Assembly: GCA_003223555.1 (NCBI GenBank)
Contig: QHVM01000085.1
Span: 92,211 to 156,210 of the forward strand
Length of the DNA: 64,000 bases
Source of the DNA: Acidobacteriota bacterium
Lineage (GTDB): Bacteria; Acidobacteriota; Vicinamibacteria; Fen-336
Direction: 5' to 3'
Of the stretch, positions 9,434 through 58,100 are shown in pieces. Under the pieces are notes generated by a model, which saw only the letters and a list, made by a program, of their open reading frames with translations, searched no databases and was not told the DNA's origin. A program made the translations under genes and the position numbers. Numbering within the stretch: position 1 is the first letter of the stretch; each line of letters starts with the position of its first letter.

Positions 9434-9508
9434 TGGAGCGGGAAACGGGATTCGAACCCGCGACTTCGACCTTGGCAAGGTCGCACTCTACCACTGAGTT
9501 ATTCCCGC
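9434..9508 (-). tRNA. tRNA-Gly (anticodon GCC)
   Basis: Reverse complement reads GCGGGAATAACTCAGTGGTAGAGTGCGACCTTGCCAAGGTCGAAGTCGCGGGTTCGAATCCCGTTTCCCGCTCCA. Cloverleaf with anticodon loop CTTGCCAAG and encoded CCA. Confidence 0.9.
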
Positions 9509-9641: not shown

Positions 9642-9717
9642 GGCGGCGTAGCCAAGTGGTTAAGGCGGAGGTCTGCAAAACCTCTACTCTCCGGTTCAAG
9701 TCCGGACGCCGCCTCCA
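9642..9717 (+). tRNA. tRNA-Cys (anticodon GCA)
   Basis: GGCGGCGTAGCCAAGTGGTTAAGGCGGAGGTCTGCAAAACCTCTACTCTCCGGTTCAAGTCCGGACGCCGCCTCCA. Acceptor GGCGGCG/CGCCGCC, anticodon loop CTGCAAA, encoded CCA. Confidence 0.9.
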
Positions 9718-16019: not shown

Positions 16020-16105
16020 ACCGCCAGGATCGGGAGGAGAGAGCGGATGTGGGAGGCGCGCAACGGGCGCCCCCCAGCTTCGGGGAACCGGTCCGCGAAC
16101 GAGCG

Positions 16106-17221
16106 TCAGCGGAGGGCGCGCAGGTTCAAGATCTGCGTCAAGAGGCTCGTGAGGATGCTGTAGTTACCGTTGGAATACCGTCCATACTGAGAGCGGCCAT
16201 AGTAACCGTCCTCGTAACCGCGGCGGAAGCCCTCCCGGAAGTAGTAGTTGTACTCGGGCTGGTCGATGTACCGGCCCGTATAGCCGTAATTCGCATCCTG
16301 GTAGGCGTAGGAGCCTTCGGGATCGAAGCGCCAGCCGTCCTGCCGGTCGGCGCGGCCGGCCCGGAAGCCTTCCTCATATCCGTATCGGACCGCCTGCCGG
16401 AGCAGGTCCGCCCCGTACTGGTTCGTCTCGTAGTAGCGCCCGTCATAGGAGTAGCCGTAGCTGGGGGCGGTGTAGAAGTATGGGTCGTTGCTGTAGTCGT
16501 AGGAGCGCGCCAGCGCCAGACGCTGCTGGCGCAGGCGGCCCAGGTACTGCTCCTGGAAGCGGTACTGCGCGAGGCGACGCTGCTGCTCCAGGGCCTGTGC
16601 GCGCTGCTGGGCGAGGTTCAGCTGCTGCTCCAGCCGCTGGTTGTACGCCGCCGCGCGCTGGCGCTGCTGCTCGATGAGCTGCTGCTGGCGCTCCTGCGAG
16701 AGGCGCTGCTGCCGGAGCGGCTGTGCTGATGACACCTGCTGCTGAGCCTGCTGCTCTTGCCGGATCTGTCGCTGCGGCTGCTGTTGTTGGGCCTGTTGCG
16801 CCTGACGGGCCTGACGCTCCTGCTGGCGCTGGTGTTGAGCCTGCGGTTGCTGCTGCGCCTGCTGGGCCTGCCGCTCCTGGCGCTGCGCCTGCTGCCGGCC
16901 CTGCTCTTGCGCCTGTTGCTCCTGCCGGCCCTGCCGCTCCTGCTGGCGCTGCTGTTGAGCCTGCGGTTGCTGCTGTGCCTGCTGGGCCTGGCGCTCCTGC
17001 CGCTGCTGCTGGCGTTGCGCCTGCTGCTGAGCCTGTTGTTGCGCCTGTTGCTCCTGCCGGCCCTGCCGCTCCTGCTGGCGCTGCTGTTGAGCCGGCTGGG
17101 CCCGGCCTTGCTGCGGCTGATCCTGCTTCTTCTCCTTCTTGTCCTGCTCTCCCTGCTTCTGCCCCTCCTGCATCGCACTCACCAGCGCCAAGCTCGCGCG
17201 GTTCCAGCCGGTCATGATCAT
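16106..17221 (-). CDS. secreted Gln/Arg-rich tandem-repeat protein with a Tyr/Gly/Arg-rich C-terminal low-complexity domain
   Basis: Signal peptide MIMTGWNRASLALVSA. About 200 aa of imperfect roughly 40-aa repeats (QQERQGRQEQQAQQQAQQQAQRQQQRQERQAQQAQQQPQAQ...). Non-repetitive Y/G-rich tail (YGYSYDGRYY ... YGRSQYGRYSNGNY). The minus strand was chosen over antisense plus-strand ORFs because of the signal peptide and the complex tail. Confidence 0.55.
   Translation of the reverse strand: MIMTGWNRASLALVSAMQEGQKQGEQDKKEKKQDQPQQGRAQPAQQQRQQERQGRQEQQAQQQAQQQAQRQQQRQERQAQQAQQQPQAQQQRQQERQGRQEQQAQEQGRQQAQRQERQAQQAQQQPQAQHQRQQERQARQAQQAQQQQPQRQIRQEQQAQQQVSSAQPLRQQRLSQERQQQLIEQQRQRAAAYNQRLEQQLNLAQQRAQALEQQRRLAQYRFQEQYLGRLRQQRLALARSYDYSNDPYFYTAPSYGYSYDGRYYETNQYGADLLRQAVRYGYEEGFRAGRADRQDGWRFDPEGSYAYQDANYGYTGRYIDQPEYNYYFREGFRRGYEDGYYGRSQYGRYSNGNYSILTSLLTQILNLRALR
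16780..17110 (-). repeat. in-frame tandem DNA repeats (units of about 120-126 bp) encoding the Q/R-rich repeats
   Basis: Recurrent CTGCTGGCGCTG...GCCTGCTGGGCCTG blocks are visible on the plus strand. They are coding, not a CRISPR array (no spacer structure). Confidence 0.7.
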
Positions 17222-29325: not shown

Positions 29326-30063
29326 ATGTTCACCCGCATCGGCCGTTTCTTCAAGGCCGTCTTCAACGCCATCCTGGGCGAGGCGGAAGCCCGGGTGCCG
29401 GTCTCCATGCTGGAGCAGTCGGTGCGGGAGATGCTGGACAACCTCCGCGTCCTCCGCGAGGCGACCGCCACCACCATCGCCTTCGAGACCAAGGCCAAGC
29501 GCGAGCTGGACGCCCAGAACGCCCGGGTCAAGAACCTGGACGCCCAGGCCGAGGAGGCCCTCCGGCAGGGCAACGAGAAGCTCGCCCGCCGCGCGCTGCA
29601 GCTCCAGGTCGAGGCCAAGTCGACGCGGGAGCGCTCCGACCAGGTCTACAAGGCCGCCCGGCTGCGGGCCGACAACGCCCGGAGCAAGCTCAAGATCGAG
29701 GAGGAGCGGGTCGAGGGCAAGATCCGGCAGCTCGGCGAGCTGAAGGCGATCAACGCGATGAATCAGGCCCAGCGCCGTATGCAGGAGATCACCGACGAGT
29801 ACAACATCGACGGCGCGGTGTCGGTGTTCGACAAGACGGCCGGATCAATCCAGGAGCAGGCCGACAAGCTCTCGGCCATGGACACGATCGCCGTCTCGGA
29901 GGGCGAGGAGCTGGACCGGCAGCTCTCGGCGCTGGGCCGCAAGAGCGAGGTCGACTCCGCCCTCGACGCGCTGAAGGCGCGGCTCGGCGAGGCCCCGGCC
30001 GCGAGCTCGGCCGCCCCGGCCAAGGCCAAGGAAAAGGTCTCCTCGGCCTTCGACGAGAAATAG
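29326..30063 (+). CDS. pspA: PspA/IM30-family protein (phage-shock protein A-like)
   Basis: N-terminal [21 protein letters not shown] and the coiled-coil pattern typical of PspA/Vipp1. Confidence 0.85.
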
Positions 30064-30230
30064 CAATCGCCGCGCGCGGCGCGCGATTCACTCGCGCGAA
30101 GCAAACGGGGTTCAAGGGGGCGCGCGACAACTCCGGGCGCTCTCTGCGTCCTCCGCGTTGAACGGCCGGGGTGGTATGATTGGCGGTTGCGTTTTCGCGG
30201 CTGACGGCTGCGTGGGCGCACCCTGATTCC

Positions 30231-46473: not shown

Positions 46474-47031
46474 GTGTCCCTGGACCGGATCCTGCAAGCC
46501 ACCGTCAAGGCCGGCGGCCACGAGGTGCGCCTGGTGCCGGGCCGCCGCATCGTGATCCTCACCCCGGCGGGCGAGCGGGAGGTGCAGGGGCCGGCGCAGA
46601 CCCCCGCCGCCATCGATGATCTCATCGCGCCGCCGTTGACCGCCGACGCCCGCCGAGCGCTGGCCGACGGCCGTGCCGAATGGGCGGTCGAGGTGCCAGG
46701 GGTGGGAGCGGTGCGGGCCCGGGTAGATCGCCGGCCCGACGGCACCGTCGCTTCGCTCGCCGTAGGGCAGGCGCCCGCGGGCCGCCCCGCGGGATCCGCG
46801 GCCGAGATCGAGGAGCTCTTCCGGGCGATGGTGGAGATGAAGGCCTCCGACCTGCACCTCTCGGTGGGCTCGCTCCACACCTCTTCCGCCCCCTCGACGG
46901 TGGACCGGATCATCGACCAGTTCCCGGCCGACCACGCCAAGGCGGTGGACAAGGCGGGCCTGCTGAGCATGTTCAAGAAGGCCGGCATCGACACGTCCTG
47001 GGTGCCCGCCGAGGCCGCCCCCGGCACCTAG
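46474..47031 (+). CDS. stand-alone PilT N-terminal-domain-like protein (no ATPase domain)
   Basis: Residues 1-100 follow the PilT N-domain pattern (..VRL.PG..I....G.....P....A.......L........FEVPGVGA.R..V.....G....R). Residues 113-130 (IEELFRAMVEMKASDLHLSVGS) repeat the canonical start of PilT (..ASDLHL). The protein ends after 185 aa. Confidence 0.5.
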   Translation: MSLDRILQATVKAGGHEVRLVPGRRIVILTPAGEREVQGPAQTPAAIDDLIAPPLTADARRALADGRAEWAVEVPGVGAVRARVDRRPDGTVASLAVGQAPAGRPAGSAAEIEELFRAMVEMKASDLHLSVGSLHTSSAPSTVDRIIDQFPADHAKAVDKAGLLSMFKKAGIDTSWVPAEAAPGT

Positions 47032-50288: not shown

Positions 50289-50314
50289 AGGCCGTACGAG
50301 ACTGAGCCAAGGCT

Positions 50315-50352
50315 GCGAGCGTAGCGGGATTCACTCCCGCGGAGCGAGCGGG
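50315..50352 (+). repeat. REP-like palindromic element, copy 1 (GCGAGCG-tAGCGGGATTCACTCCCGCgga-GCGAGCG)
   Basis: A hairpin GCGGGA/TCCCGC with a 5-nt loop, flanked by 7-bp direct repeats GCGAGCG. Matches copies at 54417-54454 (reverse orientation) and 57157-57209. Confidence 0.7.
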
Positions 50353-50356
50353 GGGT

Positions 50357-50420
50357 CTGGGGGGCGCGCCGCTAGCGCCCCCCAGCTGGATGAGGAGCGC
50401 GCCGCTAGCGCCCCCCAGCT
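50357..50420 (+). repeat. GC-rich hairpin (GGGGGGCGC-N7-GCGCCCCCC) followed by a 24-bp partial direct repeat
   Basis: CTGGGGGGCGCGCCGCTAGCGCCCCCCAG forms a perfect 9-bp stem. GCGCGCCGCTAGCGCCCCCCAGCT recurs 33 bp later. It lies between the TPR-SLH gene and crp. Confidence 0.6.
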
Positions 50421-50481
50421 CAATAACCGTGCTTGCCGTCCTTGACGGAGGCGTCTAATATCCTCACCGGAGGCCTCACCC

Positions 50482-54266: not shown

Positions 54267-54324
54267 GGCCGTGCCTTCCGGTGGCAGATCGGCAACGATC
54301 GAGTGTACGGTCGGCGTGTCGTCT

Positions 54325-54427
54325 TGAGCAAGGGGGTGCTGGGGCGCGTCCCTTGAACCCCCGCTCCGCTCCTCATTGAGCAAGGGAGTGCTAGTGGCGC
54401 ACCCCCTTGAACCCCCGCTCGCTGCGC
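54325..54427 (-). repeat. two tandem roughly 51-bp units, each containing a hairpin (CAAGGGGGTGC...GCACCCCCTTG), in the hsp20 5' leader / mutS 3' region
   Basis: TTGAGCAAGGGGGTGCTGGGGCGCGTCCCTTGAACCCCCGCTC and TTGAGCAAGGGAGTGCTAGTGGCGCACCCCCTTGAACCCCCGCTC are direct repeats with internal inverted repeats. Confidence 0.65.
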
Positions 54428-54454
54428 GGGATTGAATCCCGCTCCGCTCGCAGC
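54417..54454 (-). repeat. REP-like palindromic element, copy 2 (reverse orientation)
   Basis: GCTCGCtGCGCGGGATTGAATCCCGCTCCGCTCGC is the reverse complement of the copy-1 pattern, including both 7-bp flanks. It sits 10 nt from the mutS stop. Confidence 0.7.
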
Positions 54455-54464
54455 CGTGGCCAAG

Positions 54465-57116
54465 CTAACCGCTCAGCTTCAGCCGCTTGCGGAGCTCGTC
54501 GAGCAGGGCCAGGGCCTGCAGGGGCGTCAGTTGCTCGAGGTCGAGCCGGCGCAGGTCCTCCAGCACCGACTCCTCCTGGCCGGCGAAGAGGGCGAGCTGG
54601 CGGCCGCCCTCGGCCGGCGCCGCCGGCTGATCGCTGCGGGCCAGGCGGGGCCGTCCTTCGCGGTCGAACTCGGTGCGCTCGAGGTTGCGCAGGATCTCCT
54701 GGGCCCGGGCCACCACCGGCACCGGAAGCCCGGCCAGCCGCGCGACCTGGATGCCGAAGGAGCGATCGGATCCCCCCGGCTCGATCTTCCGCAGGAAGAC
54801 GACGCTGTCCCGCCACTCGCGCGCCGACACGTGCAGGTTGCCGACCCCGGCCAGGTCCGCGGCGAGGTCGGTCAGCTCGTGGTAGTGGGTGGCGAAGAGC
54901 GTCTTGCCCCCCGCCGCGCGGTCGCGCGCGATGTGCTCCGCCACCGCCCACGCGATGGAGAGGCCGTCGAAGGTCGCGGTGCCACGGCCGATCTCGTCGA
55001 GAAGGATGAGGCTGCGCGCGGTCGCCTGGCGGAGGATGTGGGCCGTCTCCTGCATCTCCACCATGAAGGTGGACTGGCCGCGCAGGATGTGGTCGGTCGC
55101 CCCCACGCGGGTGAAGATCCGGTCGACGACGCCGACCTTGGCCTCCCGGGCGGGGACGAAGCAGCCCATCTGGGCCATGACCACGACGAGCGCGGTCTGG
55201 CGGAGGAAGGTCGACTTGCCGCCCATGTTGGGGCCGGTGAGGACGAGGAGCCGCGCCGCCCCGTCGCCCATCTTGAGGTCGTTGGCCACGAACGGCTCGG
55301 GCAGCACGCGCTCCATGACCGGGTGGCGGCCCTCGACGTACAGGAGCTCGTCGCCCGCTCCCACGCGCGGCTTGACGTAGTTGTAGCGCGCCGACACCTC
55401 GGCCATCGTCGCCAGGACGTCGAGGGTGGCCGCGGCGCGCGACGTGCGCTGGACGGCGCGGGCGGCGGCCGCCACCCGGCCGCGCAGGCCGTCGAAGATC
55501 TCCGCTTCCCGCTCCCGGATCCGCTCGTCCGCCCGCAGCACCTTCTCCTCGTACTCCTTCAGCTCGGGGGTGATGAAGCGCTCGCCGCCGGCGATCGTCT
55601 GCTTGCGCACGTAGTCGGGGGGGACGAGGCTTAGGTTGGACCGGCTGACCTCGATGTAGTAGCCGAAGACCCGGTTGAACCGCACCTTGAGCGAGGCGAT
55701 TCCCGTCCGCCCGCGCTCGCGCTCCTCGATGGCGGCGATGGTGGTCCGGCCGCCGTGGCTCATCTGCCGCAGCTCGTCGAGCTCGGCATCGACGCCGTCG
55801 CGCACCAGCCCGCCGTCGCGCACGGCGGCGGGCGGCTCGTCGACGAGGGTCGACTCGACGTCGGCCGCCACTTCCAGGGGGGGATCGAGGTCCTTCAGCT
55901 GGCCGCGCACCAGAGGGGCCGCGCAGCCTTCGGCGGCCGCGGCGGCGTCGGGCAGGGCCCGCAGCGAGCGGGCCAGGGCGACGAGGTCGCGGGGCGAAGC
56001 GGTGCCGAGGGTGATCCGCCCGACGATGCGGTCCAGGTCCTGCACGCCGTGCAGCGCCTCCCGCAGTCGCCCCCGCGCCACGGTGCGGAAGGCCAGCTCC
56101 TCGACCGCGTCGAGGCGGTCCTGGATCGGCTCCACGTGGACGAGGGGCCGGAGGATCCACTCGCGGAGCAGGCGCGATCCCATCGCGGTGGCCGTCTCGT
56201 CGAGCACGTCGAGCAGCGTGCCCCGCCGGCCCCCGTCGGCCAGGTTCTCGACGAGCTCGAGGTTGCGCCGGGTCAGGCCGTCGATGACGAGCCCGTCCTC
56301 CTGGTGACGCGTGCGGAGGGAGGTGACGTGGGCCAGGTCGCGCTTCTGGGTCTCCCGCACGTAGCGGAAGACGGCCCCCGCCGCCGCCGCGGCGCGGGGC
56401 AGCGACTCGCAGCCGAAGGCCTCCAGGCTGGCGACGCCGAAGTGGGCGACGAGGTCGCGGCGCGCGGAGCCCGGGTCGAACGCCGCCACGTCGAGGAGGG
56501 TCCGGGGCAGCGCGCCTTCCGGCTGGGCGGGGTCGGCGAGCCAGCCGGGCAGCTCGGCGCCCCGGGGCACCAGGACCTCGCGGGGGCGGGTGGCGCCCAT
56601 CTCGTCGCGGAGGCGGTCCCACCTTGCCGTCCCGGCCCACTCGCTCACGAAGAAATCACCGGTGGTGGCGTCGAGCCACGCCGCCCCCAGGAGGGCTTCG
56701 CCGGGCGCGAGGGCGAGGACGTAGGAGGTCTCGCCGGCGTCGAGGGCGGAGGCCTCGAGCTGGGTGCCCGGCGTGACCACCCGCACCACCTCCCGGCGCA
56801 CGACGCCCTTGGCGCTCCGGGGGTCCTCCATCTGCTCGCAGAGCGCGACGCGGAAGCCCTGCTTGACGAGGCGGGCCACGTGGGCGGATGCCGCGTGATG
56901 GGGCACCCCGCACATCGGGATGGCGGCGCCGTCCGGGTCCTTGGCGCGGGAGGTGAGCGCGATCTCGAGGGCGCGCGAGGCGACCACCGCGTCCTCGAAG
57001 AACAGCTCGTAGAAGTCACCCATGCGGAAGAAGAGGAGCGCGTCGGGGTGCTCGGCCTTCATCCGGTGATACTGCTGCATGGCCGGCGTGAAGGCAGCAG
57101 GGGTGGCGGCGGACAT
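54465..57116 (-). CDS. mutS: DNA mismatch repair protein MutS
   Basis: N-terminal TPMMQQY-like (TPAMQQYHRMKAEHPDALLFFRMGDFYELF), Walker A GPNMGGKST, 883 aa. Confidence 0.95.
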   Translation of the reverse strand: MSAATPAAFTPAMQQYHRMKAEHPDALLFFRMGDFYELFFEDAVVASRALEIALTSRAKDPDGAAIPMCGVPHHAASAHVARLVKQGFRVALCEQMEDPRSAKGVVRREVVRVVTPGTQLEASALDAGETSYVLALAPGEALLGAAWLDATTGDFFVSEWAGTARWDRLRDEMGATRPREVLVPRGAELPGWLADPAQPEGALPRTLLDVAAFDPGSARRDLVAHFGVASLEAFGCESLPRAAAAAGAVFRYVRETQKRDLAHVTSLRTRHQEDGLVIDGLTRRNLELVENLADGGRRGTLLDVLDETATAMGSRLLREWILRPLVHVEPIQDRLDAVEELAFRTVARGRLREALHGVQDLDRIVGRITLGTASPRDLVALARSLRALPDAAAAAEGCAAPLVRGQLKDLDPPLEVAADVESTLVDEPPAAVRDGGLVRDGVDAELDELRQMSHGGRTTIAAIEERERGRTGIASLKVRFNRVFGYYIEVSRSNLSLVPPDYVRKQTIAGGERFITPELKEYEEKVLRADERIREREAEIFDGLRGRVAAAARAVQRTSRAAATLDVLATMAEVSARYNYVKPRVGAGDELLYVEGRHPVMERVLPEPFVANDLKMGDGAARLLVLTGPNMGGKSTFLRQTALVVVMAQMGCFVPAREAKVGVVDRIFTRVGATDHILRGQSTFMVEMQETAHILRQATARSLILLDEIGRGTATFDGLSIAWAVAEHIARDRAAGGKTLFATHYHELTDLAADLAGVGNLHVSAREWRDSVVFLRKIEPGGSDRSFGIQVARLAGLPVPVVARAQEILRNLERTEFDREGRPRLARSDQPAAPAEGGRQLALFAGQEESVLEDLRRLDLEQLTPLQALALLDELRKRLKLSG

Positions 57117-57144
57117 GGGCTGGACCGGTTACCGTCGCGAGCTA

Positions 57145-57486
57145 TCAGCCACGGCCGCGAGCGGAGCGGGATTCATTCCCCCCGGGCCCGCAGAGCGGAC
57201 CCGCTCGCGACGTGCCGAGAATCGTCCCTCCCTTGGGGAGGATGCCGGTCACGGAGAACGAGGTCAGCGGCTCGACGTCGCCCTCGATCAGCCCCCGGAA
57301 GCCGTTGCGGATCCCCAGCACCTCCATGCTCGAGGACTGCGCGCGGCGCACCACGGCGCGGATCACCGCGTTGAGACCGGGGCAGTCTCCGCCGCCGGTC
57401 AGGATTCCGACTCTCACGAACGGAATTCCGTCACGGGCGAAAGTATAGACTAACCGCATCGTGCGCGTGCTGGCCGTGGACACCAC
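57145..57486 (-). pseudogene. pfkA: 5' fragment of 6-phosphofructokinase (about 95 aa of homology), truncated
   Basis: [26 protein letters not shown]...[12 protein letters not shown]...GGTILGTSR matches the PFK N-terminus. Homology stops at about 57207, exactly at REP-like copy 3, and mutS begins 30 nt further on. Confidence 0.7.
57157..57209 (+). repeat. REP-like palindromic element, copy 3 (degenerate)
   Basis: GCGAGCGGAGCGGGATTCATTCCCCCC...GCTCGCGA shares the 5' flank and hairpin core with copies 1 and 2. Confidence 0.55.
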
Positions 57487-58100
57487 GACCGTGCGGGGCA
57501 GCGTCGCGGTGGCCGAGGACGACGAAGTGCGGGGCGAAGTGCGCGCGGCGCCTCGTGCCCGCCATCGACTTCCTCCTCGCCTCGCTGGGGCTGCACCCGG
57601 TCGACGTGGAGGGCTTCGCCGTGACCACCGGCCCGGGTTCCTTCACCGGCCTCCGCATCGGCCTCAGCACCGTGCAGGGGCTGGCGCTCGCCTCGGACCG
57701 GCGCTGCCTGGGCGTGAGCGCCCTCGACGTGCTGGCGGCGCGCAGCGCGGGCCTCGCACCGGCGATCGTGGCCATGGTCGACGCCTACCGGGGCGAGGTC
57801 TACGGCGCGCTCTACGACGGCGCGGGCCGTCCGGCCGGCGCGGGCGCGGTGGAGCGGCCGGAGGCGCTCCTGGCCCGCGCCCCCGAAGGGGCCGCTTTCG
57901 TCGGCGACGGCGTGCTGCGCTACCGCGAGTTGATCCTCTACCGGCGGCCGAGCGCGCTGTTCCCGCCGCGCAGCCTCTACCTCGCCGGGACGCTGGCCCG
58001 CATGGCGGCTCCCCGCCTCGGCCGCGGGGAAGGCGTCCCGCCCGCGCAGCTCCGGCCGCTCTATCTCCGCGAGCCCGACATCCGCCGGCCGGCGTCATGA
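57461..58100 (+). CDS. tsaB: tRNA threonylcarbamoyladenosine biosynthesis protein TsaB (YeaZ), apparently frameshifted about 30 codons in
   Basis: [29 protein letters not shown] is in one frame. [15 protein letters not shown]...[13 protein letters not shown] continues in another frame (ORF 57555..58100). The junction lies in GCGCGCGGCGCCTCG. Stop overlaps the rimI ATG. Confidence 0.8.

Follow-up and report, generated by a model that had tools for sequence, protein, structure and literature searches.

The stretch of DNA analysed here, which we call the window, is 64,000 nucleotides long and carries on its - strand, between tsaB and an intact mutS, an ORF (57145-57486) that runs in the ORF listing from 57486 down to a TGA at 57147-57145 and that encodes only the beginning of a phosphofructokinase (PFK). 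The features of this locus are as follows.

57461-58100, + strand: tsaB, the divergent neighbour of pfk, in two frames (57461 onward and 57555-58100).
57431-57456, TTAGTCTATACTTTCGCCCGTGA on the - strand: conserved motif between the divergent tsaB and pfk, a presumed bidirectional promoter.
57193-57417, - strand: pfk remnant, with a GTG start at 57417-57415 and PFK codons 1-75 of an ATP-phosphofructokinase of about 335 aa.
57193-57198, - strand: CCGCTC, a candidate 6-nt microhomology at the junction, from comparison with the related locus L167.
57145-57198, + strand: partial copy of a REP-like repeat (copy C), with module 1 canonical at 57145-57180 and degenerate to about 57198, and module 2 (the G+C hairpin) missing.
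57145-57192, - strand: non-PFK tail of the ORF, which in translation is the repeat read in frame to the TGA at 57147-57145.
57117-57144, - strand: mutS leader spacer of 28 nt, from the stop of the remnant to the mutS ATG, orthologous to the proximal mutS leader of relatives.
54465-57116, - strand: mutS, intact, 883 aa with all five MutS domains (Pfam), ATG at 57116-57114.

The PFK identity of the ORF, proposed in a preliminary description of this DNA, was borne out by profile, translated and structure-based comparisons. PF00365 (PFK), the sole Pfam match in the remnant ORF (E = 5.6e-25), aligns ORF residues 25-97 with profile positions 1-73 of 277, and the remnant aligns with residues 4-73 of E. 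coli PfkA (1pfk, 320 aa) and residues 3-74 of Bacillus PFK (3pfk/4pfk, 319 aa). The homologue list obtained from the PFK fragment consisted mostly of contig-end fragments and included no full-length sequence; as tblastn queries we used eight full-length PFKs (341-357 aa) translated from related metagenome loci. The window is matched by their first 74-82 residues only, from 57417/57414 down to 57193, or to 57181/57169 for three of the eight, and no other piece of pfk was found in the 64 kb, all remaining tblastn matches having E >= 0.067. The GTG at 57417-57415 aligns with Met1 of PFK orthologues and is the real start of the remnant, the part of the ORF upstream of it being read-over of the intergenic region. 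From the DNA alignment to the related locus L083 and from the protein, codons 1-71 (57205-57417) are certain and codons 72-75 (A-G-P-L) probable. The preliminary description had similarity ending at about 57207, which is right for the certain part, up to codon 71 (R, 57205-57207), but similarity plausibly continues to codon 75 (P-L, 57193-57198), since TSRAGPL resembles the TSRANPL/TSRHDPL of intact PFKs. It also had the frame running through the repeat to a stop, as it indeed does, to the TGA at 57147-57145; mutS then begins after 28 nt, not 30. That these 28 nt are orthologous to the leader of relatives was judged by comparing the sequences of the window, L164, L163 and L167. A 1-nt deletion frameshifts the non-PFK tail in L169, giving a 109-aa variant, and the tail is therefore not conserved as a protein.

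What is left of the enzyme is well preserved, with 86.7% amino-acid identity to residues 1-75 of the intact PFK of L165, and it includes the nucleotide-binding motif GGGD(A/C)PG(M/L)N, within profile positions 1-73 and 1pfk residues 4-73. The full catalytic domain (about 320-340 aa; 277 profile positions) is absent, only profile positions 1-73, or residues 1-75 of 335-342, being present. About 22% of the enzyme is encoded and about 260 codons (about 780 nt, where some 700 had been estimated), or about 78%, are missing. IAVGGDGT, VPKTIDND and EVMGR, all found in intact L165 and L083, lie beyond residue 75 and so are absent from the window. In E. coli PfkA, the GGDG motif, the catalytic Asp127 (in PKTIDND) and the binding sites for fructose-6-phosphate and effectors all belong to residues 74-320. 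Because the stub amounts to about one-fifth of a Rossmann-like domain, without the catalytic and substrate-binding motifs of its intact orthologues, it cannot function as a kinase; as a protein it most probably has no activity of any kind.

MutS homologues at 77-91% identity are common in soil metagenomes, one source labelling a member Vicinamibacteria, and the loci around them show what the window has lost. In these relatives, NUDIX, pssA, psd, DUF465, rimI and tsaB lie on one strand and mutS, hsp20, htrA and a response regulator on the other, and the flanking gene order of the window is the same. In L165 (91% MutS identity) and L172 (77%), tsaB and mutS are separated by an intact pfk of 335-336 aa, and pfk is found directly upstream of mutS in L166 (91%) and L167 (89%), both of whose contigs start inside pfk. 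The divergent tsaB-pfk pair is also present in L083, which has tsaB and at least 194 aa of a pfk 96% identical to that of L167, and in L085, L088, L093, L096 and L098. From these intact loci, distant divergent tsaB-pfk pairs included, it follows that the order with pfk is ancestral, namely rimI-tsaB <- -> pfk -> mutS -> hsp20. Comparing the synteny of tsaB-rimI, pfk and mutS, as had been recommended, thus puts an intact pfk exactly there in L165 and L172, and a pfk-mutS pair in L166 and L167. It also disposes of the idea that the short ORF is conserved among relatives, which have either an intact pfk of 335-336 aa or different deletions. A genome-contig search with MutS, which extended to 600 stretches and so probably missed closer genomes, returned, among the matches listed, only distant relatives (<=59% identity), none with pfk beside mutS, and was of no help for synteny; a literature search on Vicinamibacteria and phosphofructokinase found nothing relevant.

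The spacer between pfk and mutS is 51 nt long in L165 and L166, 91 nt in L172 and 123 nt in L167. It holds no repeat in L165, L166 and L172, a full repeat in L167 and a partial one in the window and in L164; since it is missing from the same spacer in three relatives, the repeat is an insertion. About 90 of the 123 nt in L167 are repeat, full and in reverse orientation, with module 2 beside the pfk stop and module 1 beside mutS. This state of L167, with an intact pfk, a full repeat and mutS, is the predicted precursor of the window.

The repeat at the junction, already noticed in the preliminary description, belongs to a family that we know here from four copies in 64 kb. Its 26-nt core, GCGAGCGGAGCGGGATTCAATCCCGC, has three matches in the window at <=2 mismatches versus 0 expected, and an nhmmer profile built from the full copies finds four copies, at 30061 (+), 50303 (+), 54463 (-) and 57145 (+), the last being copy C. 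The other three are as follows.

54324-54463, - strand: copy B, module 1 and two module-2 hairpins, directly after the mutS stop.
50303-50425, + strand: copy A, module 1 and two module-2 hairpins, intergenic, directly after a stop codon.
30061-30130, + strand: copy D, directly after a stop codon (nhmmer E = 6e-9, model positions 3-73).

Full copies are modular, with a module 1 of about 50 nt, in which a GCGGGA-TTCAN-TCCCGC hairpin is flanked by two GCGAGCG repeats, and beyond it one or two G+C hairpins, for example GGGGGGCGC...GCGCCCCCC. A solitary G+C hairpin module (TGGGGGGCGCGCC..GCGCCCCCCAGCT) was found at 16050-16079 (+), again directly after a stop codon. Copy C, which we delimited by alignment with copies A and B and with the copy of L167, matches the profile at E = 9e-5 over model positions 2-37 of about 92 and also matches the core pattern. 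Copy B is inverted relative to it, so that the two bracket mutS; copy A, at a distance of 7 kb, points the same way as copy C. At the site of copy B, the mutS-hsp20 spacer, the repeat is found in the window lineage only and is absent in all eight relatives examined, which makes copy B a lineage-specific insertion. Presence/absence polymorphism of this kind at orthologous sites indicates that the element is mobile. The predicted fold of copy B is more stable than those of shuffled sequences (z = -3.2, beating 200 of 200 shuffles) and that of copy A has z = -1.9; copy C, with z = -0.4 and -1.35, is no different from shuffles. A 10-bp inverted repeat around copy C, CGTCGCGAGC (57133-57142) and GCTCGCGACG (57203-57212), dominates the predicted - strand fold (z = -1.35), one of its arms being pfk codons T-S-R; we set it aside as probably fortuitous. 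At gathering thresholds, Rfam matches nothing at the repeats, the only matches in the window being two divergent tRNA genes, 9437-9508 (-) and 9642-9714 (+). The family is probably undescribed, though of familiar type.

Two other kinds of repetition were seen. A second short repeat, unrelated to this family, occurs at 664-701 of L164, in its pfk-less spacer, and at 4010-4048 of L163, in the rimI-DUF465 spacer (39 nt, 92% identical). In the window, 16658-17110 is dense in CTG/CTGCTG-rich direct repeats (families D1 and D2) with periodicities of 9 to 120 nt and is presumably low-complexity coding sequence.

The junction between pfk and the repeat is found, base for base, in three further ENA assemblies with two assembler naming styles (scaffold_ and k141_). 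L081 (ERZ28573530, scaffold_9784) is identical to the window through the junction and encodes an identical MutS protein; L082 (ERZ27315388, k141_753555) differs from the window by 30 SNPs in 12.8 kb and L169 (ERZ28573528, scaffold_24087) by a 1-nt deletion within the repeat, with the junction unchanged in both. Because the junction recurs in these three loci together with variants of their own, the assemblies argue that the truncation is real in the organism and not a misassembly. The full-length pfk that, according to the preliminary description, a corrected assembly might bring back does not appear in any of them. L081 and the window are otherwise colinear except for about 300 nt that do not align (L081 11901-12199 versus window 46608-46880), either a local difference or, possibly, low-complexity or masked sequence. 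The 104-aa product forms a 90%-identity cluster of five sequence variants on about ten contigs and stands in NCBI as PYQ12881.1 and PYQ21154.1, "hypothetical protein DMF80_17315 [Acidobacteria bacterium]". Each of the four assemblies keeps the reading frame open, which is compatible with translation of the stub.

Upstream of the remnant, the tsaB/pfk intergenic motif TTAGTCTATACTTTCGCCCGTGA contains a near-palindromic, -10-like TATACT/TATAGA; the tsaB start is 4 nt away from the motif on one side and the pfk start about 15 nt away on the other. Its 26 nt are 100% conserved in L164, 41 nt are 92.7% conserved in L083, and L163 and L165 match exactly over shorter stretches, all this despite a coding dS of 0.5-0.9 (near-saturated synonymous sites); in the pfk-less L170, a TATACT-containing remnant is found about 20 nt before mutS. 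Strict scanning of 56900-57700 for sigma-70 promoters and terminators called nothing, so it is conservation that suggests a bidirectional promoter here. Such a promoter would explain why each pfk deletion halts short of the motif, and in pfk-less lineages it would read into mutS, in the window via the stub and the repeat. The stub probably persists because of this retained region, its 5' end overlapping a conserved divergent promoter region that would be needed by tsaB and would now also lead to mutS. The position of the promoter would also make tsaB a candidate leaderless or near-leaderless gene.

The tsaB of the window has an oddity of its own. Between 57543 and 57544, 23 nt (CCTGCTCAGCCCCGACGGCCACT in the tsaB sense) are missing in the window only; they are present in L081, L082 and L169, each with an intact 220-aa tsaB, and the Pfam match to TsaD falls in the second piece of the window tsaB only. 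tsaB is normally essential. Either the window has a variant of its own here, or the consensus of its assembly is in error.

The window is not alone in having lost pfk. L163 (90% MutS identity) retains the pfk ATG and 16 further codons (1-17), fused in frame to the last five (331-335) and the stop.

L163, 5291-5359: 22-codon mini-ORF, the first 17 and last 5 pfk codons, left by an internal deletion.

Since the window keeps codons 18-75, lost in L163, and L163 keeps codons 331-335, lost in the window, the two deletions are certainly independent. L164 (89% MutS identity) has no pfk; its 285-nt spacer holds the promoter motif, other repeat material and, before mutS, the same partial module 1 as the window. 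Among more distant relatives (about 80% MutS identity), tsaB and mutS are 42-193 nt apart in L168, L170/L171 and P0134, with no pfk gene called between them, and comparison of the DNA found no pfk relics in the spacers of L168 and L170. On a MutS neighbour-joining tree (no bootstrap), taxa without pfk fall among those with an intact gene: L167 has L164 as its sister, L163 and the window lineage each stand separately and the intact L172 branches close to the base. With L164 and the 80% group included, pfk has been lost independently at least three or four times.

Taken together, these findings make it very probable that the locus is a young pfk pseudogene, formed by deletion of the rest of the gene along with part of a repeat that lay before mutS. 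In the ancestor, a REP-like repeat would have inserted in reverse orientation into the short pfk-mutS spacer, the state kept in L167. A single deletion of about 0.83 kb would then have taken pfk from codon 72/76 through codon 335 and its stop, together with the G+C hairpin module and the distal end of module 1. Left in place would be the promoter region between tsaB and pfk, then 71-75 codons of pfk fused in frame to about 36-54 nt of repeat, with mutS 28 nt further on. That both partners are truncated argues for a deletion from the gene into a pre-existing repeat rather than for insertion of a repeat into the gene. The youth of the event is read from substitution rates. Over codons 2-71, dN/dS (Nei-Gojobori) between the remnant and intact orthologues is 0.07-0.11, compared to 0.08-0.09 between intact pfk genes and 0.10-0.12 for mutS, at dS of 0.5-0.96. 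Since the value of the remnant equals those of the intact gene and of mutS, the divergence predates the deletion and the loss is recent on the window branch.

As to how the ends were joined, L167 has CCGCTC in two places 835 nt apart, one in pfk codons 74-75 (position 209), the other where module 1 of the repeat ends distally (position 1044), and a deletion from one to the other would join codons 1-75 of pfk to the proximal portion of module 1, as in the window. The deletion may therefore have been joined through this 6-nt direct repeat, by replication slippage or illegitimate recombination, a proposal that we make tentatively and rate somewhat below an even chance. Between the last certain codon and CCGCTC, the window has GCGGGT (codons 72-73) where L167 and L083 have CACGAC, matching pfk at one of six positions; the exact breakpoint is thus uncertain within 57193-57205, and joining by microhomology requires that codons 72-73 read A-G in this lineage specifically or that filler DNA was added. 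Small indels relative to the other copies (about 2 nt lost and about 7 nt gained) also mean that copy C is not the clean product of an L167-type repeat, and L167, at 89% MutS identity, is a sister lineage and not a direct ancestor of the window. We rejected a junction at CGTCGCG, a sequence common to pfk codons 69-71 and to the loop of module 2 in the repeat of L167, since the downstream sequence that it predicts mismatches the window.

Whether the repeat took part in the deletion or merely received its end is a closer question than what the object is. The preliminary description suspected a rearrangement or deletion associated with the repeat and had homology end exactly at it. A deletion junction ending in the repeat is what comparison with L167 supports, and the end does lie in partial copy C, but this coincidence does not prove a mechanistic role, because the end point is partly forced by spacer geometry: with about 90 of 123 spacer nt taken up by repeat in L167, a deletion sparing mutS would most likely end inside it anyway. 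A plain illegitimate deletion, with the repeat mechanistically uninvolved and holding the end because it fills the available space, is accordingly a reading to which we give serious weight, if slightly less than half. Other pfk deletions, internal in L163 and precise in L170, did without the repeat; against this, REP sequences are known to border deletions in E. coli, 11 of 14 in one study (PMC4872102). It is a variant of the best explanation that present data do not separate from it, and no competitor as to the identity of the object. A rearrangement proper, in which the repeat inserted into pfk and recombination between copies, for instance an inversion between B and C, carried the 3' part away, might be suggested by the inverted copies flanking mutS and by copy A lying 7 kb off in the same orientation as copy C. 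We consider it extremely improbable, as no pfk 3' sequence occurs by any of the four copies or elsewhere in the 64 kb, and the repeat of L167 lies outside pfk, not within it. The B/C inversion was itself rejected, given that gene order and orientation, including those of mutS and its hsp20/htrA neighbours, are as in all relatives and that no pfk 3' piece adjoins copy B. Chimeric joining of contigs at the repeat, in a genome that really has a full pfk, can hardly be the explanation either. The join does sit at a multi-copy repeat, and the 23-nt tsaB deletion is a private oddity of the window nearby; yet the three further assemblies carry the junction along with independent SNPs and an indel, copy C shares only about 36 nt with the other copies and is unique beyond, and the flanking gene order is exactly that of relatives.

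Much the same holds for the reading of the 104-aa ORF as a small protein with a function of its own, such as a nucleotide-binding half-domain or a regulator, which we regard as very unlikely. It could draw on the ORF being open in every assembly, on its annotation as a protein in NCBI and on its low dN/dS versus intact PFKs, but that ratio, accumulated over dS of 0.5-0.9, is the intact-gene value and reflects history before the deletion. Changes since the deletion, within the population, are two non-synonymous SNPs and one frameshifting indel, too few for a test of relaxed constraint. Both SNPs fall in the remnant of L082, one changing R to K and the other G to D in the invariant GGGD to give GDGD, and the indel frameshifts the tail; such changes look like a poor fit to a functional protein. 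Moreover, sister lineages have cut pfk down to 22 codons or to none, and alignment to the 319-320-aa structures suggests that this one-fifth of a domain would need the remainder to fold. A pseudogene left by deletion is thus the reading that we retain.

That pfk has been lost repeatedly from a single locus, in a soil lineage that is abundant and uncultured, is a modest curiosity. The deletions, at least three of them independent in the clade with 89-91% MutS identity and one or more in the 80% group, could mean that removal of pfk was selected rather than neutral, either because loss of the ATP-PFK was advantageous or because it placed mutS under the tsaB/pfk promoter, with the REP-like element serving as a recombination substrate in some events. 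We think this combination unlikely. Were it true, expression of mismatch repair would have been altered, or loss of ATP-PFK favoured, in soil Vicinamibacteria-like bacteria. This pfk may be dispensable there. More practically, a domain-based pipeline would score the remnant as a PFK and the public record has it as a hypothetical protein, when the population has in fact lost this pfk. Since this and several sister populations have lost the gene, the glycolytic capacity of these abundant uncultured soil Acidobacteriota needs checking gene by gene. The locus also offers an example of stepwise gene loss in which intact gene, repeat-bearing precursor, truncated product and parallel deletions can be lined up, and it documents a modular, mobile REP-like repeat family in the lineage; it reveals no new mechanism.

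Both components of the object are of known kinds, the one a pseudogene derived by deletion, the other an intergenic repeat family of REP/BOX type. With the PfkA family (PF00365; 1pfk, 3pfk/4pfk) the remnant shares its N-terminal 71-75 residues, including the nucleotide-binding motif, and a site beside tsaB that is orthologous to the intact pfk of relatives, but it has nothing past E. coli residue 73 or so and is a pseudogene, not a functional member. It resembles other partial-deletion pseudogenes in its truncated ORF, in the intact orthologues of close relatives, in the varied deletion ends of sister lineages and in a possible short microhomology; it differs from them in that precursor, product and parallel losses have all been recovered, which is unusual for an uncultured lineage, and in that public databases continue to list the remnant as a protein. 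The repeat is like REP/BIME, BOX and ERIC elements in being short (about 90-140 nt), G+C-rich and multi-copy, as well as intergenic, usually right after stop codons, and polymorphic in presence among close relatives; it may also form stem-loops, as predicted for copy B. Its module 1 followed by one or two hairpin modules recalls boxA-boxB(n)-boxC, but its sequence has no relation to the curated families, as no Rfam match was found. REP/BIME families typically come with a RAYT (IS200/IS605-like) transposase and number tens to hundreds of copies per genome; here four copies were seen in 64 kb.

The flanks of mutS are also polymorphic in the mutS-rpoS region of enterobacteria. There, as here, the surroundings of mutS vary among close relatives through insertions and deletions, although genes, organisms and elements are all different and the likeness is one of analogy only.
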